Assembly: GCA_045640185.1 (NCBI GenBank) | Contig: JAZUEN010000053.1 | Coordinates: 6,289-70,288 of the forward strand | Length of the DNA: 64,000 nucleotides | Source: Bacteroidales bacterium | GTDB lineage: Bacteria > Bacteroidota > Bacteroidia > Bacteroidales > SZUA-534 | Reading direction: 5' to 3' | Program-made: the position numbers and the translations under genes | Notes under the pieces: generated by a model | Seen by the model: the letters and a program-made list of their open reading frames with translations, nothing else | What the model was told of the DNA's origin: nothing | Database searches by the model: none | Shown here: piece after piece, positions 17,501 through 64,000 of the stretch | Position numbering within the stretch: position 1 is the first letter of the stretch | Layout: each line of letters begins with the position of its first letter

Positions 17501-18634
17501 ACCATCGATATTGACATATATGTTTTCTGAATTCAGGAAATTGACGGAATACGTAGTGCTATGGTATGCCGTAGCAGAAATTTTACCTGCTTTCAACTTT
17601 GTACATTGCCCGTAATCGATGTTTTTAATATATGGATGGCTATAAAACGCATAATCGCCGACCTGTGTGACATTCGCAGGTACTACAAACGTTTCTTGCG
17701 TGTTGCATTTAAAATATCGGCATAGAATGGTGTCGGCAGAAGTGTATTTATACAACACACCGTCAATCACTTCAAAACATTTATTTCCCTCATCAATATC
17801 TGGCAAAAAACTATTGTTTGAAGCATACATCAATGCCGATGTTCCCATAGATTCAACCTTTGCACCAATGTGAAGGCTGACCAATTTGCCACCAGACACT
17901 ACAGAACCCATGCTTGTCACATTGTCGCCACCTGTTATGCGTTGCAAATTTTGCATTGCATAAAACGCAAATGTAGCAACGATTTCAACCGATGCCGGTA
18001 TGTCGTAATTGGCGCCACTCAAGTATGGAGGATAATAATACAGTTTCTTCATGTCCTTGCTATACAATATGCCGTCGGCATTTGTACACAGCGTGGAACT
18101 CGACTCGTCAACATGAAAATGCTTGACACCCGGGAAAGTCGTCCAGCTGAAAAAGTTATCTCCACCTGCCACTGTCCCGACGTTCTTTCCTATCACTAAT
18201 GTGTCGCCTTTATTTGGGGCTAACACTGCACAATGAAAGGCGTTTTTTTCAATGGTGGTAAGGGCTTCACTATCCAAATTGATTCTTATGCCTGAACCGT
18301 TAGGCCCGCTGACGCGCTCAAAAGCATAATACTTGATTGTTTTGACATTGCTACCTAATGTGACTGACTTCACATCGTAGCAGTAATAAAAGGCATCCTG
18401 CCCGATTGTGGTGACAAGATAATCTTTGCCTTTGACCGTAATGCTAGACGGAATGACAACATCGCCACTATACTGCCATTCACCAGCGACAACAGTGGCC
18501 TCACCCTTTTTAGGTGAATCCAGCTTGTAATAAACGATACCTTCTGCGCTAGAAGAAGCAAAATTATAATCGTACGAAAAAGCGCTTGCAAAAACCAATG
18601 TAAACGCCACTGTCAGTAGTAAATGTTTTGCCAT
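11597..18634 (-). CDS. giant T9SS-secreted surface protein (BspA-type LRR + Listeria-Bacteroides repeats + T9SS C-terminal domain)
   Basis: 2345 aa. Signal peptide. The N-terminal ~600 aa carry BspA-like LRR motifs (IGQDAFYYCYDVKSVTLGSNVKTIKYYAF). More than 20 repeats of ~70-75 aa follow, with the F.GW...-......FG.M.....FYA.W signature. The C-terminus TVYPNPVIEKAYV...GLYIVKIDGKAVSFIKL is a T9SS type A sorting domain. Confidence 0.85.
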   Translation of the reverse strand: MAKHLLLTVAFTLVFASAFSYDYNFASSSAEGIVYYKLDSPKKGEATVVAGEWQYSGDVVIPSSITVKGKDYLVTTIGQDAFYYCYDVKSVTLGSNVKTIKYYAFERVSGPNGSGIRINLDSEALTTIEKNAFHCAVLAPNKGDTLVIGKNVGTVAGGDNFFSWTTFPGVKHFHVDESSSTLCTNADGILYSKDMKKLYYYPPYLSGANYDIPASVEIVATFAFYAMQNLQRITGGDNVTSMGSVVSGGKLVSLHIGAKVESMGTSALMYASNNSFLPDIDEGNKCFEVIDGVLYKYTSADTILCRYFKCNTQETFVVPANVTQVGDYAFYSHPYIKNIDYGQCTKLKAGKISATAYHSTTYSVNFLNSENIYVNIDGVFYSDDTVTMVLYGSDVAVKDYVMPAKTKKITVSTIKSNANTKTFSINKVANEINGEYLYPLENLEYYYVDEGNGTYSSDTCGVLYNKSKTKLISYPRGNKRLFYKVADGTTQVGIHAFYCNKYLQGLDLGDDIKSVVDGNSGNMAEMKSLSFIRVGTNQPPIATTSSFSSSMYSGNTKVILYVPSEAFDIYSNSSIWNRFAVVRDTGDFMSDIKSKKYDYLTYHYKQNIEGTGFLKPESVKCEGYLLCNTTAEPNNYEGFTPMPFDQKLLDNTNVIVKIYYTRNSYTVNWKSKGEVVSNGTYKYGTVMTEPNVTVTPDAGKHFIGWNPNPDATTAVTFDENSLLRKDTTFHAIFATNDRKPYVVRHFLQNLDDNNYPTTPFATDTIMEVFGLQTQATAKTYTGFTAPASINQGTVSEDGNTVVDINYTRNSYDVNWYNGSAPVLAGNYKYGSELVIPSDPPAVAGKHFVGWNTDANATVALSLGGKTVEGAATYYAIFATNDSKSYTVNHYKQNLDGTYPTDPEETETGSGTVGLQTQATAKTYTGFTAPETISQEIIKADGTTVVDIKYTRNSYDVKWYNGSAPVLTGNYKYGSYLEIPSASDLEAVAGKHFIGWNTIDTVNNALNLTEATVDSNVVYYAIFVVNDSKPYVVNHYQEDLDGNYPATPTTTDNGSGVWGLQTNASAKNYEGFTAQNFSQATIKEDGTTVVEIYYKRNIHILTWSIGYGTLESESYTKGSVMFGATIIEPKLNREGYTHKGWSLTNGGNTTVVATQMPDADLTYYDVWDVNEYKVIWDWNYAGSPQPTSFFNYGEDIEAPAGVPDRDKYTFAGWSKTKNGAIITNGDFGKMTTAGATFYAQWIPNKYNLTWNANGGSLSGSYTSGSVDYGTDIVKPNASRTGYTFIGWGESATATSTINIPLTMPGEDKEFFAIWKINQHTLTWNANSGELSGNYTKGTVSYGTTITAPLATRYGYTFKGWTITLGSTETVEITTMPDDNVTYYAVWEANQHTLTWIANGGELGGTYTSGTVAYDTTIVAPTNVSRTGYKFAGWGESATSTAPTSVASTMPDEDVEYYALWVAKDYVVEWLLNDGTDNLYGSNNVAFGNAISKIEPDPSREHYKFLGWSKTADSEVISEFGTMNANEVKFYAQWQINSNNLSWDANGGDLSGTYTSGAVDYGQEIVKPTATRKGHTFEGWASASDASVSDIVEITTMPDADTTFYAVWSVNAYTVNWKFNDGTSGNFTTTEVNYGDYISQPANNPSFEHYQFLGWSATEDGDVISDFGTMEASDTTFYAIWQLNKNVVAWYINNGTDSIFATDTIEYLAEIVSPVETPSRKYHHFMGWSSSQSGLAESDFGTMPDNDTAFYAVWAEDVYDAIWYMNDGSDSIFLTTTASVSSPVIAPDTVPARANYAFQGWSSTADGEILTDFGTMPSGGTSFYAIWSLNQFTANWYMNDGTDSVFYTVMANVSDTLAVLDAAPVRIDYLFKGWSSTADGEILTDFGTMPSGGIEFYAVWEDVLYDALWYVNNGSDDIFFTAQATVSSTLVAPDSVPSRANYAFQGWSSTADGEILTDFGTMPSGGTSFYAIWSLNQFTANWYMNDGTDSVFYIVRTNVGDTLAMPDTVPVRANYEFQGWSSTADGEILTDFGTMPSGGTSFYAIWSLNQFMALWKMNDGTDAVFKSEKIAMDSAIVAPETVPTRADYMFVGWSASPQGGVITDFGTMNGEGVVFYAIWDPIVEFTTPDKFVTCENEKKIELTGVSHNVEFVWSVNGVVDTTQFGPEYELPESSAYEGTVEVTGSFGGKNVRKEIPYQRKKEMIRTMWDDVVTVVNADSMFCSYKWYHNDQLIDTTEFYNEVGGLTGSYYLVATTFSGVEICSCDRNFGEKKEVAMTVYPNPVIEKAYVRGSILEVGKRIVVTDDKGNTILSRIVTKEGVEEFDFTKTPQGLYIVKIDGKAVSFIKL
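12397..16657 (-). repeat. in-frame tandem coding repeats inside the giant surface-protein gene
   Basis: A 219-nt period with near-identical blocks starts at 12491 and 12710. The conserved core GGCATTGTGCC(G/A)AAGTCGGTCAGGATTTCACCATCGGCGGTTGACGACCAGCC recurs at 12534, 12753, 12972 and 13191 (the 13191 copy has A in place of G). More diverged units, including three ~115-aa units, extend to ~16.6 kb. Confidence 0.9.
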
Positions 18635-24301: not shown

Positions 24302-26107
24302 ATGAAACATACACTACGAAGCGCACAAACAACCGAAGGCCGCAGAATGGCCGGTGCGCGCGCCCTATGGGTGGCAAACGGTATGAAGCGTGAGCAAATG
24401 GGCAAGCCTATCATTGCCATTGCAAATTCATTCACCCAATTTGTTCCAGGTCACACACACCTGCACGAAATTGGCCAGATAGTGAAAGCCGAAATCGAAA
24501 AACTTGGATGCTACGCCGCCGAATTCAACACCATAGCCATCGACGACGGAATAGCAATGGGTCACGATGGAATGCTCTACTCTTTGCCTTCACGCGACAT
24601 CATTGCCGACTCTGTTGAATATATGTGCAATGCCCATAAGGCCGATGCGCTCGTATGCATAAGCAACTGCGACAAGATAACCCCGGGAATGCTGATGGCA
24701 TCAATGAGGCTGAACATACCTACAGTCTTTGTTTCAGGCGGACCAATGGAAGCCGGAAAATGGAACGGCGAAAATGCCGACCTCATCACGGCAATGGTCA
24801 AGTCTGCCGATTCTTCAATAAGCGATGAGCAGGTTAAGGATATCGAAAACTGCGCTTGCCCAGGTTGTGGTTCTTGTTCAGGAATGTTCACTGCAAACTC
24901 AATGAACTCGCTTACCGAAGCCATTGGATTGAGCCTTCCGGGCAACGGCACCATACTTGCAACACACGCAAACCGTATCCAACTGTTCAAGGACGCAGCT
25001 GCACTCATCGTAAAAAATGCTTACAAATATTATGAGGAAGGCGACGAAAGCGTTCTTCCGAAAAGCATTGCAACACGTCAGGCGTTCCTGAACGCAATGA
25101 CACTCGACATTGCAATGGGTGGCTCAAGCAACACAGTTCTTCACCTTTTGGCTGTTGCCTACGAGGCAGGAGTCAATTTCAAGATGCAGGATATCGACAT
25201 GCTAAGCCGCAAGGTTCCGTTCCTATGCAAGTTGGCACCAAACACACAAAAATACTCTATTCAGGAATGCAACCGCGCCGGTGGCATCTTGGGAATTCTC
25301 AACGAACTAAACAAGGTTGGTCTGCTTGACACATCAGTAAAACGCGTCAATGGAGCGACGCTTGCCGAGGACTTGAAGAAGTACTACATCTGCGGAAGCA
25401 CAATAGACCCAGAGGCACAACGCATATACGAAAGTGCGCCAGGCGGCAAGTTCAGCACAAAGATGGGTTCACAGTCAACAAAATGGGAATCGTTTGATAC
25501 CGACCGCGCCAACGGATGCATCCGTGACGTTGAGCACGCATACTCGAAAGACGGCGGATTGGCAGTATTGTTCGGCAACATCGCCAAGGACGGCTGCATA
25601 ATCAAGACTGCAGGCGTTGACGAAAGTCTGTGGCACTTCAGCGGACCGGCAAAAGTATTTGACTCGCAAGAAGATGCCTGCGATGGAATTTTGGGAGGCA
25701 AAATAAAGGCCGGCGATGTTGTGGTGATCACAAATGAAGGACCAAAAGGCGGACCAGGCATGCAGGAAATGCTTTATCCGACATCCTACATCAAGAGCAT
25801 GCACCTTGGCAAGGAATGCGCCCTCATCACCGACGGACGTTTCTCGGGTGGAACATCAGGCCTGTCAATCGGCCATATTTCGCCGGAAGCCGCAGCAGGT
25901 GGCGCAATCGGCAAGATTGTTGACGGCGACATCATAGAGATAGATATTCCTACACGTTCAATAAACGTCAAACTGAGCGATGCCGAACTTGAGGCACGTC
26001 CAATGCGTCCATTGACACGCAAGCGCGTTGTCGCAAAATCACTTAAGGCATACGCAAGCATGGTAAGTTCAGCCGACAAGGGCGCAATCAGAATAATACC
26101 TGAATAA
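24302..26107 (+). CDS. ilvD: dihydroxy-acid dehydratase
   Basis: [24 protein letters not shown] and [17 protein letters not shown] motifs. Length 601 aa. Confidence 0.95.
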
Positions 26108-26146
26108 TTGTTTTAAGCACAAACCACATATTAAACTGAGACTCTA

Positions 26147-27844
26147 ATGGCAGATAAGATTACAGGCGCAGAGGCACTTATGCGTTCGCTCGAAAACGAA
26201 GGCGTCGAGGTAATGTTCGGTTACCCTGGCGGTGCCATAATGCCTACATTTGATGCGCTATACGACCACACAAAGAAACTTAACCACATATTGGTACGCC
26301 ACGAGCAGGCTGCGGCCCACGCCGCACAAGGCTATGCACGTGTCAGCGGCAAGGTGGGTGTCTGTCTGGTAACAAGCGGACCTGGCGTCACCAACACCAT
26401 AACAGGCATTGCCGATGCAATGATGGACAGCACCCCTATTGTGGTGATTGCCGGACAGGTAGGAGCATCTTTTTTGGGTAGCGACGCCTTTCAGGAAGTC
26501 GACCTTGTAGGCGTGACACAGCCTATCAGCAAATGGGCATACCAGATTCGCCGTCCAGAAGATGTGGCCTGGGCTGTAAGCCGCGCATTCTACATTGCGC
26601 GCAGCGGTAGGCCAGGACCTGTTGTGCTCGACTTTGCAAAAAACGCACAAGTAGGGACCGTTGAATACGAACCGCAACACATCGACTTTATCCGTGGCTA
26701 TGTTCCAGAGCCGGAAATTGACGACGAAGCCATACAGGAAGCGGCAAGGCTGATAAACGCAGCCGAACGTCCATTGGTGCTTGTCGGGCAAGGCGTGGAA
26801 CTTGGAAACGCACAGCAGGAACTCCGCAACATGATTGAAAAAGCCGACATGCCCGCAGGATGCACATTGCTCGGACTTTCGACCTTGCCATCGGACCACA
26901 GGCTGAATGTAGGAATGCTTGGCATGCACGGAAGCCTTGCATCAAACATCAAGACACAAAAATGCGATTTGCTGATAGCCGTAGGAATGCGTTTCGACGA
27001 CAGAATAACAGGCAAGTTAAGCACCTACGCCACTCAGGCAAAGAAGATTCACTTCGATATCGACCCGTCGGAAATAAACAAGAACGTCAAAGTTGACGTG
27101 CCTGTGCTTGGCAATTGCAAGCAGACTCTTGCGGCTGTGACCAAACTGATAAACAACGCCAAGCATACCGAGTGGATACAAAGTTTCGAGCCTTACTACG
27201 AGCAGGAAAAGGAGATGGTAATAGAAAAGGAAATACATCCAACCTCTGGCCCGATAAAAATGGGCGAAGTGGTGAATGTAGTGACCGAGCAGACTAACAA
27301 CCAAGCTGTTTTGGTCACCGATGTCGGCCAAAACCAAATGATGGCGGCCCGATACTTCAAGTTCACCAAAAACCGAAGCATAGTGACATCAGGCGGAATG
27401 GGCACAATGGGATTTGGCATACCTGCCGGCATAGGCGCCGCATTTGGCGCTCCCGACCGCGACATCTGCGTGTTCCTGGGCGACGGAGGCCTGCAAATGA
27501 CAATTCAGGAATTCGGCACCATCATGGAGCACCAAATACCTGTAAAGCTGATTCTCATGAACAACAGCTTCTTGGGCAACGTGCGTCAGTGGCAAGCCAT
27601 GTTCTTCAATCACAGGTACTCGTTCACACCAATGAAAAATCCTGATTTCATGAAGATAGCATCGGCTTACAACATTCCATGCAACACTGTAGTGAAGAGA
27701 GAGAATCTGGCAAGCGCCGTAAAGAAGATGATGGACACAAAAGGCCCGTACCTGCTGCAGGTGGCTGTGGAGGAAGAAGGCAATGTGCTGCCAATGTGCG
27801 CACCTGGCCACGATGTCGATGATATGATGTTGGAATACAAATAA
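26147..27844 (+). CDS. ilvB: acetolactate synthase large subunit (biosynthetic type)
   Basis: ThDP enzyme motifs GYPGGAIMP, TSGPGVTNTITGIADA and GGMGTMGFGIPAGIGA...GDGGLQM. Confidence 0.95.
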   Translation: MADKITGAEALMRSLENEGVEVMFGYPGGAIMPTFDALYDHTKKLNHILVRHEQAAAHAAQGYARVSGKVGVCLVTSGPGVTNTITGIADAMMDSTPIVVIAGQVGASFLGSDAFQEVDLVGVTQPISKWAYQIRRPEDVAWAVSRAFYIARSGRPGPVVLDFAKNAQVGTVEYEPQHIDFIRGYVPEPEIDDEAIQEAARLINAAERPLVLVGQGVELGNAQQELRNMIEKADMPAGCTLLGLSTLPSDHRLNVGMLGMHGSLASNIKTQKCDLLIAVGMRFDDRITGKLSTYATQAKKIHFDIDPSEINKNVKVDVPVLGNCKQTLAAVTKLINNAKHTEWIQSFEPYYEQEKEMVIEKEIHPTSGPIKMGEVVNVVTEQTNNQAVLVTDVGQNQMMAARYFKFTKNRSIVTSGGMGTMGFGIPAGIGAAFGAPDRDICVFLGDGGLQMTIQEFGTIMEHQIPVKLILMNNSFLGNVRQWQAMFFNHRYSFTPMKNPDFMKIASAYNIPCNTVVKRENLASAVKKMMDTKGPYLLQVAVEEEGNVLPMCAPGHDVDDMMLEYK

Positions 27845-27853
27845 AAAACTCAA

Positions 27854-28414
27854 ATGGAACAAGAAGAAAAGACACTATACACCATATTGGTTTTCTCTGA
27901 AAACCTGGCTGGCTTGCTGAACCAGATTACAGCCGTATTTACTCGCCGTCAGGTAAACATTGAAAGTCTAAATGTCTCTGCATCAAGCATCAAAGGCATA
28001 CACAAATACACTATCACCTGCTATAGCGATGCGGAAACAATAGAAAAGATAACTCGCCAGATTGAACGGAAGATAGATGTCATTCAGGCGAACTATTACA
28101 CTGACAACGAGATATTTATCCAAGAATGTGGATTGATGAAGATATCTACGCCTGTCTTGCTTGAGAACAAGCAGGTATCGCGCAGCATCCGAATCCACGA
28201 TGCAAACATAGTGGAGGTGAACCCCACTTATGCCATTGTCACAAAATGCGGATTGACTGAAGATATCGAGTCTCTGTATCAGGCATTGAAAAGCTGCAAA
28301 TGCGTCCTGCAATATGTCCGTTCTGGCCGAATAGCAATAACCAAGAGCCATACAGAGCACATCAGCGACTACATAAATGCACGCGAACAGAAATACAGGG
28401 AATCGAAAGCGTAA
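27854..28414 (+). CDS. ilvN: acetolactate synthase small (regulatory) subunit
   Basis: ACT-domain N-terminus YTILVFSENLAGLLNQITAVFTRRQVNIESLNV. Lies immediately downstream of ilvB. Confidence 0.85.
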   Translation: MEQEEKTLYTILVFSENLAGLLNQITAVFTRRQVNIESLNVSASSIKGIHKYTITCYSDAETIEKITRQIERKIDVIQANYYTDNEIFIQECGLMKISTPVLLENKQVSRSIRIHDANIVEVNPTYAIVTKCGLTEDIESLYQALKSCKCVLQYVRSGRIAITKSHTEHISDYINAREQKYRESKA

Positions 28415-28542
28415 ACGAAAGACAATTAATATTACATTGCGTCGTTTTTTTCTTAATGATATTGTGAAAGTCCTTACTTTCGCACTTTGAAAAAGACAAC
28501 AATTTGAACATATAGTTTATTTAATAACAAAAAAATAAGAAA

Positions 28543-29586
28543 ATGGCACAGATGAATTTTGGCGGTGTTATTGAAAACGTAATGACCCGCGAAGAATTTC
28601 CATTGGAAAAAGCACGTGAAATCCTGAAAAACGAGACCATCGCAGTTATCGGCTATGGCGTACAAGGCCCAGGCCAATCATTGAACCTGCGCGACAATGG
28701 TTTCAACGTAATCGTAGGCCAACGTCAAGGCAAGACTTACGACAAGGCCGTTGCCGACGGTTGGGTTCCTGGCAAGACATTGTTCAGCATTGAAGAAGCA
28801 GCAGAAAAAGCAACTATCGTAATGTGCTTGCTTTCTGACGCCGCAGTTATGAGCGTATGGCCAAGCCTTCAAAAGTATCTCACTCCAGGCAAGGCACTTT
28901 ACTTCTCTCACGGTTTTGCCATCACCTGGAACGACCGCACAGGTTGCGTTCCTGCAAAAGACATCGACGTCATCATGGTTGCTCCTAAAGGCTCAGGCAC
29001 ATCACTCCGTACCATGTTCCTTGAAGGACGCGGCTTGAACTCTTCATACGCTGTTTACCAAGATGCAACAGGCAAGGCAATGGACCGCACCTTGGCTCTT
29101 GGCATCGGCATCGGCTCTGGCTACCTGTTCGAGACTACATTCCAACGCGAGGCTACATCAGACCTTACTGGCGAGCGTGGCTCACTGATGGGTGCAATCC
29201 AAGGCTTGCTGCTTGCTCAATACGAAGTATTGCGTGAGAACGGCCACACTCCTTCTGAGGCATTCAACGAGACTGTTGAGGAGCTTACACAATCGCTTAT
29301 GCCATTGTTCGCAAAGAACGGCATGGACTGGATGTACGCAAACTGCTCAACAACCGCTCAACGTGGCGCTCTTGACTGGATGGGCCCATTCCACGATGCC
29401 ATCAAGCCAGTTGTAGAGAAACTCTACGCTTCAGTTAAATGCGGCAACGAGGCTCAAATCTCAATTGACGCCAACTCTAAACCAGACTACCGTGCCGGCC
29501 TTGAAAAAGAACTTAAGGCTTTGCGCGAGAGCGAAATGTGGCAGACTGCAGTCACTGTACGCAAATTGCGTCCTGAAAACAACTAA
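28543..29586 (+). CDS. ilvC: ketol-acid reductoisomerase
   Basis: IAVIGYGVQGPGQSLNLRDNG Rossmann motif and SHGF...PKGSG motifs. Length 347 aa. Confidence 0.95.
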   Translation: MAQMNFGGVIENVMTREEFPLEKAREILKNETIAVIGYGVQGPGQSLNLRDNGFNVIVGQRQGKTYDKAVADGWVPGKTLFSIEEAAEKATIVMCLLSDAAVMSVWPSLQKYLTPGKALYFSHGFAITWNDRTGCVPAKDIDVIMVAPKGSGTSLRTMFLEGRGLNSSYAVYQDATGKAMDRTLALGIGIGSGYLFETTFQREATSDLTGERGSLMGAIQGLLLAQYEVLRENGHTPSEAFNETVEELTQSLMPLFAKNGMDWMYANCSTTAQRGALDWMGPFHDAIKPVVEKLYASVKCGNEAQISIDANSKPDYRAGLEKELKALRESEMWQTAVTVRKLRPENN

Positions 29587-55998: not shown

Positions 55999-56475
55999 TT
56001 ACTGTTTGACAATGCGGAACACTTTCATCTGTCCCTTCTTGTTGCTGATGCGCAGCATGTATGTGCTCGGCACCAAAGCCGACATTTCCACTTGGCACGA
56101 CTCGTCAAAGTCGTCCTTGCCTACAACGGCTCCTGTCTCGGACAGAAGTTCGTAGCTGTAGCTGTCGCTCTCGGTTGTGGTAACTGTCACGGCGTCGGTT
56201 GTGGGGTTAGGGTAAACCGCAAATTCGGCCTGCAGTTCGGCAATGCCGTCGGGTGGAGGCACCACTCCGATGATGTAGGGCTGCTGCACGCCCATGTTAA
56301 TGCTGCCGCTTGCGTTGCCTGCGAATCCGGCAAACGGCTGACCTATGGTGTAGGTTACTGTTCCGGCCTGCCCAATGGCATCGCCGCCAGCCGGCACTAC
56401 AGCCGTCTGCGCCTCTGCCATTGTAGCCGTCAGCATCAGGGCCAATGCTGAAATAATGGGTTTTGATTGGTTCAT
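55999..56475 (-). CDS. small T9SS type A sorting-domain protein
   Basis: Signal peptide. GTVTYTIGQPF...GSINMGVQQPY module. C-terminal FAVYPNPTTDAVTV...YMLRISNKKGQMKVFRIVKQ sorting domain. Confidence 0.7.
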   Translation of the reverse strand: MNQSKPIISALALMLTATMAEAQTAVVPAGGDAIGQAGTVTYTIGQPFAGFAGNASGSINMGVQQPYIIGVVPPPDGIAELQAEFAVYPNPTTDAVTVTTTESDSYSYELLSETGAVVGKDDFDESCQVEMSALVPSTYMLRISNKKGQMKVFRIVKQ

Positions 56476-56494
56476 CTCTTTTGGTTTTTAAAGG

Positions 56495-56695
56495 TTATCT
56501 GCATTGTTCGTTTATCAGCTGCACCAGCTGAAGGCAGCTTGAAATGCCCAGCTTATGGTAGATGTTGGCTTTGTGCGCGTCAACTGTGCGTTTGCTTATG
56601 CCCAAATCGGCGGCAATGTCCTTTGCGCGCAAGCCTTTGCAACATGCTGCAACAATTTCACGTTCGCGATCTGTCAGTGTTTTTAATTGTGACAT
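56495..56695 (-). CDS. LuxR/GerE-type HTH-only transcriptional regulator (66 aa)
   Basis: LTDREREIVAACCKGLRAKDIAADLGISKRTVDAHKANIYHKLG is a complete LuxR-type HTH with no other domain. Confidence 0.75.
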   Translation of the reverse strand: MSQLKTLTDREREIVAACCKGLRAKDIAADLGISKRTVDAHKANIYHKLGISSCLQLVQLINEQCR

Positions 56696-56866
56696 GGCTT
56701 TATATTTTTTAAAAATTCGAAAAATCGTTTTTCGGAGGTTGTGTTCCTAAATCCGATGCAAGTATATGCGCTTATTTTTAACACCGCACATAGGTATTTA
56801 TACCTAAAATACCTAAGTATTTGCATTTCAGTATGTTTTAAGGACCGATGCAAGGGAGGCTTTTGC

Positions 56867-56893
56867 CCATGTTACATGAACCATGTTACATGA
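56867..56893. promoter_or_regulatory. tandem palindromic boxes CCATGTTACATGA x2 (candidate operator)
   Basis: The perfect 11-nt palindrome CATGTtACATG occurs at 56868-56878 and 56882-56892 (14-nt period), between the two LuxR-type genes. Confidence 0.35.
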
Positions 56894-57122
56894 GCGAAAA
56901 AAAGGCCGGAAATCGGGCTGCCGAAGTTGGTTTAGGCCATGTCTGAAATGGCTGGCGGAATGCAGAAAACCGACAAACCGGCATGCTACTTAAAAAACAA
57001 CGGTACTATGATTGCAGAGAATTCTAAAAATTGCCTTGTAGAGATTTTGAAGGAGCTGTAAGGCAGATTGAATGTCTGGACGAATGAGCAGTACGGGCAA
57101 ACGGGGATTTTATAGAAGCCTC

Positions 57123-58511
57123 CTATAGATGAACCAAGCCGTTTTTTACGGCATATAGAATGAGCTCCGTATTGTTGCTGACGCCAAGCTTCTGGTAAAT
57201 TGTCGTTTTGTGGGCGTCGACGGTGCGCTTGCTTATGCATAGTTCGTCGGCAATCTCCTTGCTCAGCTTGCCTTGGCAGCAGGCGCGCACAATTTCAATC
57301 TCGCGGGCCGACAATATGCTTGGCTTGGCATTTATTACCAGTTCCTCGTCAGCAGTGACTGAGTCGGGCGAGGTGGTGTTCTCGTTTTGCTTCCTTGTCT
57401 TGGGGAAAAACAGTTTCCGTGCAATCGATTCAGTGCGCTGAATGTCACGGTGCAGACGGTACAAGACTAACGTAAGTGCGACGCCACCCATAATGGCGAT
57501 AAGCACTATTATAAGTATCCACATCAGATGGTGCTGCCTTTCAATTACAATCTGCAGCTGCGCGTTTTGCCTTTCCTTTTCGGCAGTTTCGTATTTTACC
57601 TCAAATTCGGCCACTTGCGATTGAATTTGCTCGTTGTGCAATGAGTCTTTCAGGTCCATGGCCTTTTGGTACAGGTCCACATCCCTGAGCAATTTAGCAA
57701 GCATGTATGTCGCCTTATACTCGTAAGGCCGCTGGCTTGTCTTCCTACTTATTTCCAGACATTCGTTCAAGATAGTGCGGGCCTTCTGGGGGTCATTGAT
57801 TTTCGTATACAATTTGGACTGTTGCAGCAGATTGATGCAAAGGCTGTGCCAGTTGCATGTTTCGCGGAATACGGCCGTTGACGTGGCAAGCGCCTTTTCG
57901 GCTTTAGCGTACTCTCCCACGTAGATGTAGGTGTTGCCCAGCTGCGAGAGCCGCATGGCCGCCCTTTCAATGCGGTTGTCCGCAGTGTCGAGCGAGTAGG
58001 CGTATTCAATATGATAAATGGCCTCTTCGTATTTTTCTTCAAGGGTCAGAATCTCGCCTAACGTTCCGTGCCGCGAGGCCAGCATTGCAATGTCGTCTTT
58101 CGGGACCATGCCAAGAGCGTCGTTCATGTATGTCTCGGCCTCGGCGTACATGTTTTGATGCGTAAATATTGCCGATATCAGTGCCAGCGATGACGATATG
58201 TAGGCGGAGTCGCCCAGCTGCCGGTCGATGTCGAGCGCCTTGGAGCCATAGTCGAGCGCTTTCTCGTATTTTCCAAGGCACCAATATGAATAAGTAAGCC
58301 CGTTGTAGGTATCGGAGAACATCTCTAGCGAGTCGCTATGGATGAGTGTGAGCGCTTCTTCGAGTACACGCGCCGAGTTGGCATAGTCTTTTATCTCAAA
58401 ATATTCATCGTACTGCCTATGCAACTCATGATATTTCTGGTTGTTTGACGCCGATGCAACAAAAGAGCATAGCAATATGGCTATTCCCAAAAGATACCTT
58501 TTATTATACAT
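57123..58511 (-). CDS. membrane-anchored TPR sensor fused to a LuxR-type HTH (one-component regulator)
   Basis: Start at Met66 (MYNKRYLLGIAILLCSFVASA signal/anchor). About 300 aa of TPR-like repeats. TM helix LMWILIIVLIAIMGGVALTLVLY. C-terminal LSAREIEIVRACCQGKLSKEIADELCISKRTVDAHKTTIYQKLG. Confidence 0.75.
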   Translation of the reverse strand: MYNKRYLLGIAILLCSFVASASNNQKYHELHRQYDEYFEIKDYANSARVLEEALTLIHSDSLEMFSDTYNGLTYSYWCLGKYEKALDYGSKALDIDRQLGDSAYISSSLALISAIFTHQNMYAEAETYMNDALGMVPKDDIAMLASRHGTLGEILTLEEKYEEAIYHIEYAYSLDTADNRIERAAMRLSQLGNTYIYVGEYAKAEKALATSTAVFRETCNWHSLCINLLQQSKLYTKINDPQKARTILNECLEISRKTSQRPYEYKATYMLAKLLRDVDLYQKAMDLKDSLHNEQIQSQVAEFEVKYETAEKERQNAQLQIVIERQHHLMWILIIVLIAIMGGVALTLVLYRLHRDIQRTESIARKLFFPKTRKQNENTTSPDSVTADEELVINAKPSILSAREIEIVRACCQGKLSKEIADELCISKRTVDAHKTTIYQKLGVSNNTELILYAVKNGLVHL

Positions 58512-59111
58512 ATGATTTGTTTGTGGCAAAAGTATAAAAGCAAATAACATTTTAGGCAAAAATGCAAAAAAATACTTAGGTAAGTGATATGTAAGTCTAT
58601 GTTCCATAAACAAAAAAGCCGGTTTTTGTGGACTACTAAATCCGATGCAACCCAAAGAAACAGGTATAAAAAAGTTCCTCCGCCCGCCCCGATGAAAATC
58701 CCGCATACATCACGGCAGATGGTGGCGTGGAACTTGAGTTAGGCGGTCATGACAGCATTGAACAGAATATCGTAGACTATTTCACTCGTTTGGGAAACGA
58801 CAGCATTTCATTTAGCGGAATAAAGGATTCCGAACCCAAGACAATAAACGGAATACACGTCCGTGAAATGAGGGGCGAGGTTATGAAGGATAAGAATGGA
58901 CATAGGTATTATGGAAGATGAATCCTAAAATATTTGTCACTGAAAAGCAAAAAACTCTATCGGAACCCGCCCGCGTCACCCGCTATCGAAAGCGCCAAAC
59001 AAGTCATTGAAAATATGCATAATCGCACCTTCAGTGCCTGGCATATTGTTTGTTACATAAGAAATATAGGTATTTTAGTGAATCAGCGAACGTTAATTGC
59101 TTTAAATTGAC

Positions 59112-59119
59112 TACTTTTG
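59112..59119 (+). promoter_or_regulatory. putative -7 promoter box (TACTTTTG)
   Basis: Matches TAnnTTTG. Lies 25 nt upstream of the ATG at 59144. Confidence 0.35.
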
Positions 59120-59143
59120 CGCGAATTTTTTTGAAGGTATAAA

Positions 59144-60559
59144 ATGAAACGAAAAATTTCCATTGGTGACATTACAATGAAGCAGGCCGCCGATAAGGCA
59201 GGCTACGCCTTTTCATTCCGTGAGAAGATTGAATTGGCAAAGCTTCTTGACAAACTTGGACTTTCTGTTATCGAGGTTAGTCCCATAGTTGACGGCAAGA
59301 CAGACAGCTTACTCATAAAGTCGCTTGCATCAACAGTTAAAACCAGTGCTGTTGCCGTTCCCCTCAACATTTTTGAGGCCGACACAGTTGACACAACCTG
59401 GAACGCCTTGAAGGGCGCCGCACATCCTCGATTGCAAATCTCGGTTCCTGTCAGCACCGTACAGATGGAATATTTCTGCCACAAGAAACCAGCCGCAGTG
59501 CTCGACCTCATATCAGACCTTACGGCACGCAGCCGCGCACTTTGTCCCGATGTTGAATTCGTTGCCGAAGATTTCGGCCGCAGCGACAAGGACTTTTTGT
59601 GGCAAGCCGTTGAAGCAGCCGTCAAGAACGGCGCAACCATAGTAACCGTATGCGACGCGGCAGGCAACCTGCTGCCCGACGAGTTCTACAGCCTTGTGAA
59701 GCAGGTTAAGGAATCGTTGCCCGAAAACGTAAGGCTTGGCGTACGCTGCTCAAACGAATTCTACCTTGCCGACTCGTGCGCCATATCGGCCGTACGTGCT
59801 GGCGCCGACGAGATAAAGACCGCCCCTTTCGGCAACTTCACCGTCTCGCTCGAACGCTTTGTCAAGATACTGAACGCAAAAGTCGATGTATGCGAGGCCA
59901 CTTGCGATGTACACGCAACCGAACTTCAGCGCGTTGTGAGCCAAATCAAGCGCCTGTGCCAGACCAACCGCTCAAAACCGACATCGTTCAGCAACATCAC
60001 GCCTGAAGACAGGTCCGATATCCAACTGACCATTCACGACGACAAGGAAACCGTGATTGGCGCCGTGCGCAAGCTCAACTACGACCTTACCGAAGACGAT
60101 GCCCAAAACGTGTTCGACGCATTCGTACGCGTGGCTTCAAAGAACGACACCGTCGGCCCGAAGGAACTCGACGCAATAGTCGCCTCGGTGGCATTTCAGG
60201 TGCCTCCAACCTACAAGCTCGAGAGTTACGTCATCAATTCGGGCAATGTGATAACAGCCACCTGCCACATAATGCTCAAAAAGGGCGATGCGGTAATGGA
60301 GAGCGTATGCGTGGGCGACGGCCCAATCGACGCCGCATTCCTTGCAATAGAAAAGGTGATTGGGCGCCACTACGAGCTCGACGATTTTCAGATACAATCA
60401 GTGACTGAAGGCCGCGAAGCAATGGGCGAGACTGTTGTCCGCCTGCGCTTTGAAGGCAAGATATATTCAGGAAGAGGCATTTCAACCGATATCGTCGGCT
60501 CAAGCATCGACGCATATCTTAATGCCGTAAACAAAATAGCATTTGAGGAGGGCGAATAA
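59144..60559 (+). CDS. LeuA/HMGL-like protein with degenerate catalytic motifs and an intact LeuA-type C-terminal domain
   Basis: TIM-barrel HMGL-like N-terminus, but IGDITMKQAAD replaces DTTLRDGEQ and VRCSNEF replaces the HxH metal site. The C-terminal GDGPIDAAFLAIEKV...GRGISTDIVGSSIDAYLNAVNK matches the LeuA dimerisation/regulatory domain. Confidence 0.65.
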   Translation: MKRKISIGDITMKQAADKAGYAFSFREKIELAKLLDKLGLSVIEVSPIVDGKTDSLLIKSLASTVKTSAVAVPLNIFEADTVDTTWNALKGAAHPRLQISVPVSTVQMEYFCHKKPAAVLDLISDLTARSRALCPDVEFVAEDFGRSDKDFLWQAVEAAVKNGATIVTVCDAAGNLLPDEFYSLVKQVKESLPENVRLGVRCSNEFYLADSCAISAVRAGADEIKTAPFGNFTVSLERFVKILNAKVDVCEATCDVHATELQRVVSQIKRLCQTNRSKPTSFSNITPEDRSDIQLTIHDDKETVIGAVRKLNYDLTEDDAQNVFDAFVRVASKNDTVGPKELDAIVASVAFQVPPTYKLESYVINSGNVITATCHIMLKKGDAVMESVCVGDGPIDAAFLAIEKVIGRHYELDDFQIQSVTEGREAMGETVVRLRFEGKIYSGRGISTDIVGSSIDAYLNAVNKIAFEEGE

Positions 60560-63045
60560 TGAAACTGTCATTCTCTACACGTGGCTGGACTGACATGTCA
60601 TGGAGCGAAATCCTTGACAATGCAAGCGAGATGCACTTCGCTGGAGTGGAAATATACAATCTTTTCAAGACACCCGAATTTGTGGCAAAAGGCGGACCTT
60701 TCCACAAATACTCGCTTATGGCCACATTGCGCGAACTGCGTGAAAAGAACCTGTCGATACCCTGTTTCGACACATCGGCCGACCTGTCTATTGAAAAGCC
60801 TGAAATGCTCTCCGAACTCGAAAGCCTTATCGGAATCGCTTCGGACATGCATTGCCCATACGTGTGCGCATTCGCTAAAGACGGCGACGTTGAAACCGTT
60901 AAGAAGAACCTTTCGACACTGATTCCCGTCGCCGAAGAAAAGAACGTCACCATCCTCATCAAGACAAGCGGAATATATGCCGATACAGCCTTGTTGCGCG
61001 ACTTGCTGAACTTCTTCGCCTGCGACCAGGTGGCCGTCATATGGGATGTTCACCACCCGTACCGCGACAAAGGCGAAACGCCATCGCAGACCATAACAAA
61101 CCTTGGAGCCTACATAAAGCATGTACACCTGCGCGACAGCGACGACGCCAACACATATAATATTATAGGCGAGGGCAACTTCCCTATCGCCAATGTGATG
61201 AAAGCCTTGTCGTCAGTTGACTACGACGGATTCATATCGCTGGAATGGAAACCCGAGTGGATGCTCGACTTCACCGACCGCGATGTCATTTTCCCGCATT
61301 TTGTCAACTATATGGGCCAATTCGAGAATACACGTGGCAAGAAAACCGCACTTTATCCTAACCACGACGGCTCGGGATACTACATCTGGAAAAAAGACGA
61401 ACTGCTGAACCTTACCTTCTCAAAGGTCCTCGACCGCGTGGTTGAGGAGTTCCCTGACCAGTACTGCTTCAAATACACCACGCTCGACTATACCCGCACC
61501 TACTCGGAGTTCCGCGACGATGTCGACGACTTTGCACGGGCACTTGTGTCGTTAGGCGTAAGGCCAGGCTCAAAAGTGGCAGTATGGTGTACAAACATTC
61601 CTGCTTGGTACATAACGTTTTGGGCGACAGTAAAAATAGGTGCTGTGCTTGTTACAGTCAACACCGCATACAAGATTCACGAGGCCGAATATCTGCTCCG
61701 CCAGTCAGACACCCACACTCTTGTAATGATTGAGAGTGCGCTCGACTCCAACTACAAGGCCATAATGAACGAACTTTGTCCTGAAATAGCGACAAACGAG
61801 CCAGGCAAGCCGCTTCACTGCAAGCGTCTGCCGTTCCTGCGCAATGTCATAACAGTGGGCTACCGCCAGAAAGGTTGCCTGACATTCCAGCAGGCAATGG
61901 CCCGCCGCGATCTAGTTCCGCTCGAAGAGATTCAGCGCATGGCCGCAGCCGTACATCCCGACGACGTCTGCAATATGCAATACACTTCAGGCACAACAGG
62001 GTTCCCTAAAGGTGTGATGCTTACACACTACAACGTGGTCAACAACGGAAAGTGCATTGGCGACCGCATGGGCCTGTCAACAGCCGACCGCATGATGATT
62101 CAGGTGCCAATGTTCCACTGCTTTGGAATGGTGCTGTCAATGACTTCGTCAATAACACACGCCACAACAATGTGCCCTATGCCGTACTTCTCGGCAAAAT
62201 CATCGCTGGCCTGCATCAACCAGGAGCATATAACCTGCTTCAACGGCGTGCCGACAATGTTCATAGCAATGTTCAATCATCCCGACTACCGCAAGACCGA
62301 CTTCTCGTACATGCGTACAGGCATTATGGCTGGTTCCGGCTGTCCTGCCGACCTCATGCGCCGCGCCGCCGAACCCGACGAGATGAATATGCGGGGCATC
62401 ATAAGCGTTTACGGACAGACCGAAACGGCACCAGGCAACACCATGTCGTCCTGGACTGACGACATCGACGTCAGATGCGATACCGTGGGCTACGCATTCC
62501 CGCACGTGCGATGCAAGATTATCGATCCTGAGACTGGCCTTGAAGTGCCTGCTGGCACAAACGGCGAGTTCTGCTCAAAGGGATACAATATGATGAAGGG
62601 CTACTACAAGATGCCCGACGCCACAGCACAGACAATAGACGCCGAGGGATGGTTGCACAGCGGCGACCTTGCCTGCGTTGATGAACACGGCAACTATCGC
62701 ATCACAGGACGTCTGAAAGATATGATAATCCGTGGTGGTGAGAATATCTATCCTAAAGAAATAGAGGAATTTATATACACACATCCAAAAGTGAAGGATG
62801 TTCAGGTGATTGGCGTTCCCGACGAGAAATACGGCGAAGAGGCAATGGCCTGCATCATACTTAAGGAAGGTGAAAGCATTTCGGAAGAAGATATGCGGGC
62901 ATTCATCGTAGGCCGTCTTGCACGCCACAAGGTGCCACGCTACATCGACTTTGTTAAATCATTCCCGATGAACGCCGCAGGCAAGATTCTCAAGTACAAG
63001 ATGAGGGAAGAGGCTGTGGAGAAGTTGGGGCTGAAGAAGAATTAG
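60559..63045 (+). CDS. fusion protein: xylose-isomerase-like TIM barrel (N-terminal ~270 aa) + AMP-dependent synthetase/ligase (C-terminal ~550 aa)
   Basis: The N-terminus has AP_endonuc_2-like features (HVHLRDS, ISLEWKPEW). The C-terminus has adenylation motifs YTSGTTGFPKGVMLTH, YGQTE, GWLHSGD and the terminal NAAGKILK. The ATG overlaps the upstream TAA (TAATG). Confidence 0.8.
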   Translation: MKLSFSTRGWTDMSWSEILDNASEMHFAGVEIYNLFKTPEFVAKGGPFHKYSLMATLRELREKNLSIPCFDTSADLSIEKPEMLSELESLIGIASDMHCPYVCAFAKDGDVETVKKNLSTLIPVAEEKNVTILIKTSGIYADTALLRDLLNFFACDQVAVIWDVHHPYRDKGETPSQTITNLGAYIKHVHLRDSDDANTYNIIGEGNFPIANVMKALSSVDYDGFISLEWKPEWMLDFTDRDVIFPHFVNYMGQFENTRGKKTALYPNHDGSGYYIWKKDELLNLTFSKVLDRVVEEFPDQYCFKYTTLDYTRTYSEFRDDVDDFARALVSLGVRPGSKVAVWCTNIPAWYITFWATVKIGAVLVTVNTAYKIHEAEYLLRQSDTHTLVMIESALDSNYKAIMNELCPEIATNEPGKPLHCKRLPFLRNVITVGYRQKGCLTFQQAMARRDLVPLEEIQRMAAAVHPDDVCNMQYTSGTTGFPKGVMLTHYNVVNNGKCIGDRMGLSTADRMMIQVPMFHCFGMVLSMTSSITHATTMCPMPYFSAKSSLACINQEHITCFNGVPTMFIAMFNHPDYRKTDFSYMRTGIMAGSGCPADLMRRAAEPDEMNMRGIISVYGQTETAPGNTMSSWTDDIDVRCDTVGYAFPHVRCKIIDPETGLEVPAGTNGEFCSKGYNMMKGYYKMPDATAQTIDAEGWLHSGDLACVDEHGNYRITGRLKDMIIRGGENIYPKEIEEFIYTHPKVKDVQVIGVPDEKYGEEAMACIILKEGESISEEDMRAFIVGRLARHKVPRYIDFVKSFPMNAAGKILKYKMREEAVEKLGLKKN

Positions 63046-63072
63046 AAATATTATTTGGTGAATTATATATGG

Positions 63073-63105
63073 CGTAAGGTTGGTTTTTATCAGCCTTACG
63101 TTTTG
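63073..63105 (+). terminator. rho-independent terminator
   Basis: CGTAAGG-loop-CCTTACG followed by TTTTG. Confidence 0.6.
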
Positions 63106-63123
63106 CATTAAAAGAAAAACAAA

Positions 63124-64000
63124 ATGTCAAAGAATTTAGTAACCATTGACGGCAACGAGGCTGCATCTCATATCGCGTATGAGTTCACAGAAATAGCCGC
63201 CATTTATCCTATCACGCCGTCGTCGCCTATGGCCGAACACACTGACGCATGGTCGGCAAAAGGCAGAAAAAATATTTTTGGCCAGCAAGTCACCTTGATT
63301 GAGATGCAATCGGAGGCAGGTGCCATTGGCGCAGTTCACGGCGCAGCACAGACAGGCTCGCTCGCTACAAGTTTCACATCGAGCCAGGGCCTGATGCTTA
63401 TGATTCCGGTCCTTCACCGTATTGCAGGCGAACGTCTACCTGTAGTTCTGCACGTTGCAGCACGTACAGTGGGCACCCACGCAATGAGCATCTTCGGCGA
63501 CCATTCCGATGTTATGGGCTGCCGCAACACAGGTTTTGCAATGCTTTGCTCAGGTAGCGTGCAGGAAGTTGTCGATATGGCAGGAGTCGCTCATTTGGCT
63601 GCAATCAAGGGGCAGACACCATTTATGCACTTCTTCGACGGGTTCCGCACATCGCACGAGATAAACACCGTTGAAATGATTGACACGCAGAGACTTGCCG
63701 CAATGCTCGACAAGGATGCGCTAGCCGCCTTCCGTGCTCACGCACTCAATCCGGAGCATCCGCTTATGCGTGGCACTGTCCAGAACCCTGACGTCTTCTT
63801 CCAGGTCCGTGAGGCCTGCAACACATACTACGACGCTCTTCCAGAGATTGTTGAGAACTATCTTGGACAGATAAGCGCACTTACAGGCCGCGAATATCAC
63901 CTATTCAACTACTACGGTGCCAAAGACGCCACCGATATTGTAATAGCAATGGGCAGCGTATCGGGCGCAATAAAGGAAGCCGTTGACGAACTGAACGCAA
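63124..64000 (+). CDS. nifJ: pyruvate:ferredoxin (flavodoxin) oxidoreductase, N-terminal part (runs off the window)
   Basis: My translation from the ATG at 63124 gives MSKNLVTIDGNEAASHIAYEFTEIAAIYPITPSSPMAEHTDAW...GFRTSHE, the PFOR domain I signature. The frame is open to the window end. It is absent from the ORF track because no stop codon is reached. Confidence 0.85.
   Translation, partial: MSKNLVTIDGNEAASHIAYEFTEIAAIYPITPSSPMAEHTDAWSAKGRKNIFGQQVTLIEMQSEAGAIGAVHGAAQTGSLATSFTSSQGLMLMIPVLHRIAGERLPVVLHVAARTVGTHAMSIFGDHSDVMGCRNTGFAMLCSGSVQEVVDMAGVAHLAAIKGQTPFMHFFDGFRTSHEINTVEMIDTQRLAAMLDKDALAAFRAHALNPEHPLMRGTVQNPDVFFQVREACNTYYDALPEIVENYLGQISALTGREYHLFNYYGAKDATDIVIAMGSVSGAIKEAVDELNA

Follow-up and report, generated by a model that had tools for sequence, protein, structure and literature searches.

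In this study we analysed a 64,000-nucleotide stretch of DNA from a Bacteroidales bacterium (GenBank assembly GCA_045640185.1, contig JAZUEN010000053.1, positions 6,289 to 70,288), referred to here as the window, and in particular a gene at positions 59144..60559 (+ strand) that encodes a LeuA-like protein of 471 amino acids (aa), a paralog of 2-isopropylmalate synthase (LeuA), the enzyme with which the leucine pathway begins. Our best reading, to which we assign a probability of about one half, is that this protein is a leucine-responsive, non-catalytic subunit of a module that salvages isovalerate to leucine. The protein, characterized by its open reading frame, Pfam, NCBIfam, phmmer, alignment and an AlphaFold2 model, consists of a DRE-TIM barrel that has degenerated, an accessory region of reduced length and a regulatory domain of LeuA type that is intact, and its gene is coupled to one encoding an acyl-CoA ligase fusion. 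An initial annotation of the sequence had offered "pseudoenzyme or regulatory subunit". The first of these is now strongly supported. The second is favoured by the regulatory domain being the best-conserved part of the protein, by leucine-specific T-boxes upstream of its orthologues and by ligase fusions that lack the partner, and it would be the best-supported mechanism for the protein.

Active site and regulatory domain of the LeuA-like protein

Pfam assigns residues 5-231 (59156..59836, +) to the HMGL-like TIM barrel (PF00682; E-value 6.9e-32, 111 bits against a cut-off of 29) and residues 338-465 (60155..60538, +) to the LeuA allosteric/dimerisation domain (LeuA_dimer, PF08502; E-value 6.1e-30, 104 bits against a cut-off of 24.9, with 128 of 131 profile positions covered), so that the domain content proposed initially stands. 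The LeuA, CimA and NifV equivalog models of NCBIfam all match the protein as well, all far below their cut-offs; the best LeuA score is 283 bits against the 532 bits set for NF002086.

The barrel is without metal and substrate ligands, as judged from Pfam, from the alignment with Listeria LeuA (3ewb) and from residue statistics across the family. In the phmmer alignment with 3ewb, 'DITMKQAAD' pairs with 'DTTLRDGEQ' and 'VRCSNEFY' pairs with 'SHCHDDLG'. The metal ligands of Mycobacterium tuberculosis LeuA (MtIPMS) are Asp81, His285 and His287, and Arg80 and His379 also lie within its active site (PMC5498780). The corresponding residues of the LeuA-like protein are Lys13 for the substrate Arg, which in LeuA holds the carboxylate of the 2-oxoacid, Gln14 for the metal Asp, and Arg201 and Ser203 for the two metal His residues. 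The replacement of the HxH metal site by VRCSNEFY that had been read from the sequence is therefore correct, while the claim that DTTLRDGEQ had been replaced holds only in part: the motif is degenerate, but its first Asp is retained as D9, and the metal-ligand Asp, second in the motif, has given way to Gln14. Two deletions are found in all family members shown in the alignment. One removes 4 residues from the GxGERAGN loop, and the other, of about 24 residues in subdomain I, takes out the HxSGIHQDG segment. The HxSGIHQ segment contains the catalytic His that we take to correspond to His379 of MtIPMS.

Catalytic residues at shifted positions were considered, but none was found either by phmmer against the PDB or in a MAFFT alignment of 114 sequences. 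For the residue statistics, about 107 diverged members of the family were used. Of these 107, 9 have the metal Asp, and His is absent from the residues listed at positions 201 and 203. The position of the substrate Arg holds Arg in 34, Lys in 28 and Cys in 17 (position 13 reads R/K/C/A/Q and others), the substrate Thr is found in 32, and the catalytic-base Glu of the 'ED' motif, present here as E142, occurs in 26. The degenerate motifs are not themselves conserved, as positions 14, 201 and 203 are mixed within the family, and this variability at the former active-site positions argues against a replacement active site. Since the catalytic residues are gone and were not recovered by alignment, it is very unlikely that the protein can carry out a canonical Claisen condensation, in agreement with the earlier expectation; by the same alignments, the loss of catalytic residues extends across the family. 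The protein failed the test for several features that define the catalytic LeuA family and is therefore not one of its members.

The fold itself has been retained. The AlphaFold2 model (pLDDT 89.7) has the LeuA architecture, and its barrel superimposes on the LeuA catalytic domains of Listeria (3ewb) and Cytophaga (3eeg) with a root-mean-square deviation (rmsd) of 1.8-1.9 Å; Foldseek gave rmsd values of 1.8-2.3 Å to 3ewb, 3eeg and 3rmj. A framework of residues (D9, T11, S104, D143, R146 and D171) is kept both in the family and in canonical LeuA, and F25, E109 and K115 are invariants specific to the family. Two further 500-aa LeuA-like proteins, P0254 and P0256, have partly degenerate motifs (TLCDGE and TLCEGE; RAYNDLG and HSQNDLG) and retain the GxGxRAG loop and a long subdomain I. 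These may represent intermediate stages, or else LeuA paralogs that are decaying independently.

Conservation in the protein is highest in the regulatory domain, with a column mean of 0.68 compared to 0.46 for the barrel. The domain has the motifs GDGPIDA, TEGReAmGE and GxGxSTDIvxSSxxAYLxAxNK in common with canonical LeuA, and on the strength of the profile match and these motifs it can be regarded as an intact LeuA regulatory domain that would be predicted to bind leucine at its dimer interface.

Partner genes, leucine link and origin of the cassette

The LeuA-like gene is directly followed by one encoding an 828-aa fusion (60559..63045, +), which was identified by Pfam, NCBIfam, a structural model and sequence motifs. 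A xylose-isomerase-like TIM barrel (residues ~1-257) is joined in it to a complete adenylate-forming acyl-CoA ligase (residues ~292-809), corresponding to the Pfam domains AP_endonuc_2, AMP-binding and AMP-binding_C. The ligase motifs YTSGTTGFPKG, GWLHSGD and GKILK are all present in the translation. The best NCBIfam model, PRK12583, represents a generic fatty-acid-CoA ligase family and matches with 663 bits, below its cut-off. The TIM domain (60559-61353, +; model pLDDT 91.6) is more obscure, as phmmer gave weak matches only (MJ1311, 1e-5) and Foldseek returned generic sugar epimerase/dehydratase barrels with a TM-score of ~0.7. Its conserved residues are E31, D71, D163-H164-H165, E172, H187/H189/D192 and E229.

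The LeuA-like stop codon and the start of the fusion share the sequence TAATG, the overlap with the next gene that was noted at the outset. The tight coupling proposed on that basis holds well beyond the window: the fusion lies directly downstream and on the same strand in all loci with readable downstream DNA (~77 of 82), with a spacing that is mostly within ~10 nt and at most ~120 nt. The ligase part shows 69-93% identity across three phyla, compared with 48-83% in the LeuA-like protein and 42-83% in the TIM domain. Synteny of the LeuA-like gene with the fusion is obligatory, with translational coupling and strict co-inheritance linking the gene to an intact acyl-CoA ligase.

The dependence does not run in both directions. 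Among 121 genomes of an Oscillospiraceae-type family, the LeuA-like gene is present in 27, and each of these 27 has the TIM-ligase fusion, adjacent wherever the contig allows. Ten further genomes contain a more diverged fusion and no LeuA-like gene at the chosen threshold. Three of the ten fusions are at contig ends where the upstream gene is unreadable, one is accompanied by a diverged LeuA-like protein (38% identity), and six have none upstream, which rules out the LeuA-like protein as a universal companion of TIM-ligase fusions. Two of the six lie directly behind a T-box with a leucine CUC specifier (L129:417-656, -, and L123:2213-2453, +). When five of the six genomes were searched with a profile, canonical LeuA alone was recovered in two, the pair with the leucine T-boxes, and no LeuA homolog in the other three. 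Since fusions behind leucine T-boxes exist without the LeuA-like protein, the ligase fusion can work in the leucine regulon by itself. This makes the LeuA-like protein an add-on to the fusion, a status that fits a regulatory subunit and argues against an indispensable catalytic role.

The link of the module to leucine comes from its leaders in Firmicutes. T-boxes activate expression in response to uncharged cognate tRNA. Of 10 Firmicutes loci, 8 have a full-length T-box by Rfam (RF00230; 95-118 bits against a gathering score of 93) directly ahead of the LeuA-like gene, and in a motif survey 47 of 81 loci showed the T-box core at a distance of 56-274 nt upstream. The specifier could be read in 42 of these 47, and in each case it is a CUN codon for leucine (27 CUG, 13 CUC and 2 CUA), with the reading register confirmed on the Rfam structural alignment. 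Given the logic of T-boxes, the operon is therefore one for leucine supply, and its Firmicutes orthologues are predicted from these leaders to respond to leucine starvation. Isoleucine T-boxes with an AUC specifier also adjoin the module in Oscillospiraceae genomes (L020:6315-6548, -, and L128:575-800, +), where they point at other AMP-ligase genes. Neighbouring genes at L019:11108-15403 encode fusions of ~795 aa with HTH_3, Cupin_2 and AMP-binding domains, which may be the isoleucine (2-methylbutyrate) counterparts of the leucine module.

Third in the cassette is a gene that begins at 63124 and continues beyond the end of the window (63124..64000, +). It encodes the N-terminus of a NifJ-type 2-oxoacid:ferredoxin oxidoreductase, a paralog of pyruvate:ferredoxin oxidoreductase (PFOR) with a full length of 1156 aa, as judged by Pfam, clade membership and pocket residues. 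The host genome has two full-length PFOR-type genes that are 52.6% identical to each other; five other carrier genomes likewise hold two, the second copy being split across contigs in two of them. Nine cassette-linked PFORs form one clade (support 100/100), apart from the four second copies that are intact in these genomes. In Desulfovibrio africanus PFOR, whose numbering is used here, Thr31 and Arg114 bind the carboxylate of pyruvate and Leu121, Ala219, Ile843, Asn996 and Met1202 surround its methyl group, and in a Sulfolobus enzyme the residue equivalent to Ile843 influences 2-oxoacid specificity (PMC5020499). The cassette clade keeps Thr31, Arg114 and Asn996. All members have Val in place of Ala219 and Ala in place of Ile843 (GCSSIWG to GCSQAWG), and Leu121 is mostly Met. 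These substitutions suggest a reshaped pocket that would fit a substrate other than pyruvate, and the cassette PFORs can be described, by tree and alignment, as a distinct clade with an altered substrate pocket. A universal presence of this PFOR among carriers is ruled out, as many lack a cassette-type copy. A PFOR-type gene is adjacent to the module in ~12 loci, and in one congener the cassette-type PFOR is on another contig. A branched-chain aminotransferase (BCAT) gene adjoins the module in roughly one-fifth of loci; the one scanned is of ilvE_II equivalog grade (466 bits against a cut-off of 307). As a further tie to leucine, in a Bacteroidaceae metagenome-assembled genome (MAG) a canonical CimA/LeuA-type gene encoding 533 aa (L013:5375-6976, +) ends one base before the degenerate gene, giving the operon order live CimA/LeuA-type paralog, LeuA-like protein, fusion and PFOR.

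The family is large. An HMMER scan of 1.84 billion representatives recovered ~130 clusters (50% identity) of 450-480-aa proteins at 250-610 bits, with canonical 500-aa LeuAs bearing intact motifs beginning only at ~235 bits and below. A scan with one genome per species found a relative in at least 577 species of Bacillota, Bacteroidota and Actinomycetota. The carriers include Oscillospiraceae/Faecousia, Lachnospiraceae, Christensenellales, Acutalibacteraceae, Erysipelotrichaceae, Peptococcaceae, Tissierellia, Eggerthellaceae and a few Bacteroidales, and the best 80 carrier genomes are all gut or rumen MAGs. In a maximum-likelihood tree the family is a single clade (100/100), sister to canonical short LeuA, with a long stem (1.87 substitutions per site) followed by a wide radiation. 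The family originated in Clostridia. Bacteroidota sequences form one clade nested in Bacillota, near Oscillospiraceae and Christensenellales, in both the LeuA-like and the PFOR trees, and Eggerthellaceae are nested in Bacillota too in the LeuA-like tree. The gene is present in 13 of 15 other species of the host's genus (79-84% identity), absent from nine genomes of seven other genera in the family, and found in none of 150 other Bacteroidales genomes sampled. Congeners of the host are labelled 'Salinivirgaceae bacterium' by NCBI. From the nested clades and this distribution across genus, family and order, we conclude that this rumen Bacteroidales genus obtained the cassette near its base, by transfer from Firmicutes, and has retained it since.

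Proposed function and alternatives

In the mechanism that we favour, the LeuA-like protein would be made in fixed proportion with the TIM-ligase fusion and would bind it as a non-catalytic subunit that reports the level of leucine. A dimer of the LeuA-like protein with leucine in its regulatory domain would restrain the ligase and throttle acid activation when leucine is plentiful, an enzyme-level control placed on top of the control at the RNA level. The ligase would convert isovalerate, ATP and CoA to isovaleryl-CoA; the adjacent PFOR paralog would then carry out a ferredoxin-dependent reductive carboxylation of isovaleryl-CoA to 2-oxoisocaproate, which would be transaminated to leucine by a BCAT, encoded elsewhere in the host genome and next to the module in other loci. 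The gene set for this route is present, with the ligase and the PFOR paralog in the operon and two Aminotran_4 genes elsewhere in the genome. We infer a physical complex between the LeuA-like protein and the fusion, along with leucine-dependent inhibition of the ligase, and isovalerate would be the acid activated and the reductive direction the one in which the oxidoreductase works. To our knowledge, every LeuA regulatory domain described so far acts in cis, as the allosteric module of a synthase that performs a Claisen condensation. More tentatively, the domain may have been recruited here in trans, so that a leucine-bound degenerate LeuA would switch off an unrelated ligase; with the specialised PFOR, this would make up a self-contained and horizontally mobile isovalerate-to-leucine cassette that supplies missing genes of the rumen pathway.

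Several observations sit less comfortably with a leucine-sensing subunit of a salvage route. The host genome also carries the de novo pathway (ilvDB(N)C, and leuB with a CimA/LeuA-type synthase), and the cassette is therefore an additional route to leucine and not the sole one. No T-box core motif was found in nine Bacteroidales loci, the window included; an Rfam scan of the window revealed no other recognised leucine-responsive leader, and nothing consistent in the way of Leu-rich leader peptides was seen in the Bacteroidales upstream regions. A phmmer search of the PDB with the regulatory domain matched no LeuA or CimA regulatory domain, and no solved short-form one aligns. Four of five further carrier genomes hold ordinary-type PFOR alone. 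In the barrel, the invariant polar residues D9, T11, S104, D143 and D171 sit at the C-terminal ends of the strands, in addition to the invariant F25, E109 and K115, and a ligand site may exist there. Finally, the xylose-isomerase-like TIM domain of the fusion plays no part in a simple three-step route. It has Lys/Thr ('LIKTSG') where relatives show the first metal-binding Glu ('xxEN') and keeps an invariant or near-invariant set of His, Asp and Glu residues (WDVHH, HVHLRDS and SLEW), which looks like a real metal site.

The alternative that survives best, although we consider it unlikely, is a structural adaptor that senses no ligand and serves to stabilise or oligomerise the fusion, or to dock it to the oxidoreductase or aminotransferase for hand-over of the acyl-CoA. 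LeuA proteins are domain-swapped dimers. Obligatory synteny and the overlapping stop and start codons would suit such a role, as would the retention of the barrel fold with invariant surface residues of its own (F25, E109 and K115), and HMGL-type barrels are known in channelling complexes, the DmpG/AmnG aldolase-dehydrogenase entries being among the fold matches. A pure scaffold, however, would not be expected to need the pattern of conservation that we observed, which is strongest in the regulatory domain and includes the motifs of feedback-inhibited LeuA. In addition, some fusions manage without the partner, and PFOR and BCAT genes are adjacent in a minority of loci only.

A more distant possibility is that the old barrel performs a new, metal-independent chemistry on the ligase product or a 2-oxoacid, for example with the invariant Lys115/Glu109 or with Lys13 of this protein. 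In keeping with this idea, E109 and K115 fall in the helix region that follows the strand ends bearing the invariant polar residues, and the whole barrel has been preserved over the long evolution recorded by the tree. Yet those strand-end residues are conserved in canonical LeuA also, where they are not the catalytic ones, whereas the positions through which LeuA contacts metal or substrate all vary within the family and the loop and subdomain that close the LeuA active site have been deleted. Fusions behind leucine T-boxes moreover function in genomes that lack the LeuA-like protein.

It is equally improbable that the module, while related to leucine, handles another acid, such as another branched or a 2-hydroxy acid, or serves leucine catabolism: the generic, sub-threshold ligase match and the TIM domain without a role in the three steps would leave room for this, but induction on uncharged tRNA-Leu fits supply and not degradation, an AMP-forming ligase activates acids rather than conserving energy, BCAT and a 2-oxoacid:ferredoxin oxidoreductase complete exactly the isovalerate route, and the control of other AMP-ligases by nearby isoleucine T-boxes suggests one ligase per branched-chain acid.

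Genomic setting and relation to known systems

The operon in the window consists of three genes, because a convergent TPR-AraC regulator gene (L091:8980-10830, -) comes after the oxidoreductase. The intergenic region ahead of it (58707..59143, +), assessed by sequence reading and an Rfam scan, contains, ~30 nt ahead of the ATG, a TAnnTTTG box of the Bacteroidetes type (TActTTTG), which may be the promoter, as read off the known Bacteroidetes consensus. No T-box or other Rfam family was found in this region in an E-value scan of positions 56000-64000. A divergent gene for a TPR-TM-LuxR regulator (57123-58706, -) lies upstream. A tie between the flanking TPR regulators and the operon is doubtful, because at the one congener locus where the upstream gene was scanned it encodes a BspA-type LRR protein. 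About 30 kb upstream of the cassette is a de novo branched-chain operon (24302-29586, +) of ilvD, ilvB, a 186-aa open reading frame and ilvC; the 186-aa frame has no family match and is presumably ilvN from its position alone. The leuB gene adjoins the CimA/LeuA-type synthase gene on another contig of the host genome. The window also contains a single open reading frame of 2345 aa at 11597-18634 (-).

The LeuA-like protein has the same domain order as short-form LeuA and citramalate synthase (CimA), namely an HMGL-like barrel, an accessory region and two beta-beta-beta-alpha regulatory units. It differs from them in lacking the metal ligands, the substrate Arg, the catalytic Glu, the GxGERAGN loop and the HxSGIHQ segment as family-wide features, and from LeuA also in being always paired with the acyl-CoA ligase fusion and not with leuBCD. 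In its mode of action it would be most like HisZ, an inactive paralog of histidyl-tRNA synthetase that senses histidine as the regulatory subunit of the short-form ATP phosphoribosyltransferase HisG, and for which both complex and allostery have been established experimentally. Each is a dead paralog drawn from the same amino acid system, retained for the part of it that recognises a ligand and encoded alongside an unrelated catalytic partner, and each is accessory, in that long-form HisG and fusions lacking the LeuA-like protein manage without such a partner. In contrast to HisZ, complex formation and allostery are inferred for the degenerate LeuA, its partner is an adenylate-forming ligase and the sensor derives from a TIM-barrel synthase. 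IlvN and IlvH, the small ACT-domain regulatory subunits of acetohydroxyacid synthase in the de novo pathway, offer a second parallel, since they too are separate polypeptides, co-transcribed with the catalytic subunit, that exert end-product feedback on a branched-chain amino acid enzyme, as is proposed here. The LeuA-like protein differs in being a degenerate enzyme paralog that would act on a salvage step.

The route itself has a long physiological history. Allison and co-workers reportedly found, between the 1960s and 1980s, that rumen bacteria reductively carboxylate isovalerate, isobutyrate and 2-methylbutyrate to leucine, valine and isoleucine. Reductive carboxylation of branched-chain fatty acids in rumen bacteria is also mentioned in PMC7356843. 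The module matches that route in its rumen and gut anaerobe habitat and in its set of enzymes (acid activation, a ferredoxin-dependent 2-oxoacid synthase and BCAT), but that work was physiological. It likewise resembles the leucine T-box supply operons of Firmicutes (RF00230), the Firmicutes orthologues having CUN specifiers, while the Bacteroidales copy differs in having no T-box. In the searchable literature we found no gene assignment for isovalerate carboxylation and no earlier description of the module, of the degenerate LeuA or of a TIM-ligase fusion in this route. New here are the Bacteroidales case with its origin by transfer, the PFOR clade with its pocket substitutions, the synthase gene that abuts the degenerate LeuA, and the fusions behind leucine T-boxes that lack it.

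Branched-chain volatile fatty acids are growth factors of rumen bacteria that degrade fibre, and cattle receive them in feed as 'isoacids'. The literature that we searched assigned no genes to their conversion into amino acids. The module provides testable candidates for the activation of these acids, for the control of activation and for a dedicated 2-oxoacid synthase. Annotation pipelines label such proteins 'hypothetical' or risk calling them 2-isopropylmalate synthase, by which a de novo leucine pathway would be wrongly credited to the organism. If our reading is true, the LeuA-like protein would be a clear case of an enzyme paralog recycled as a sensor subunit, and the first LeuA allosteric domain to act on a different enzyme.

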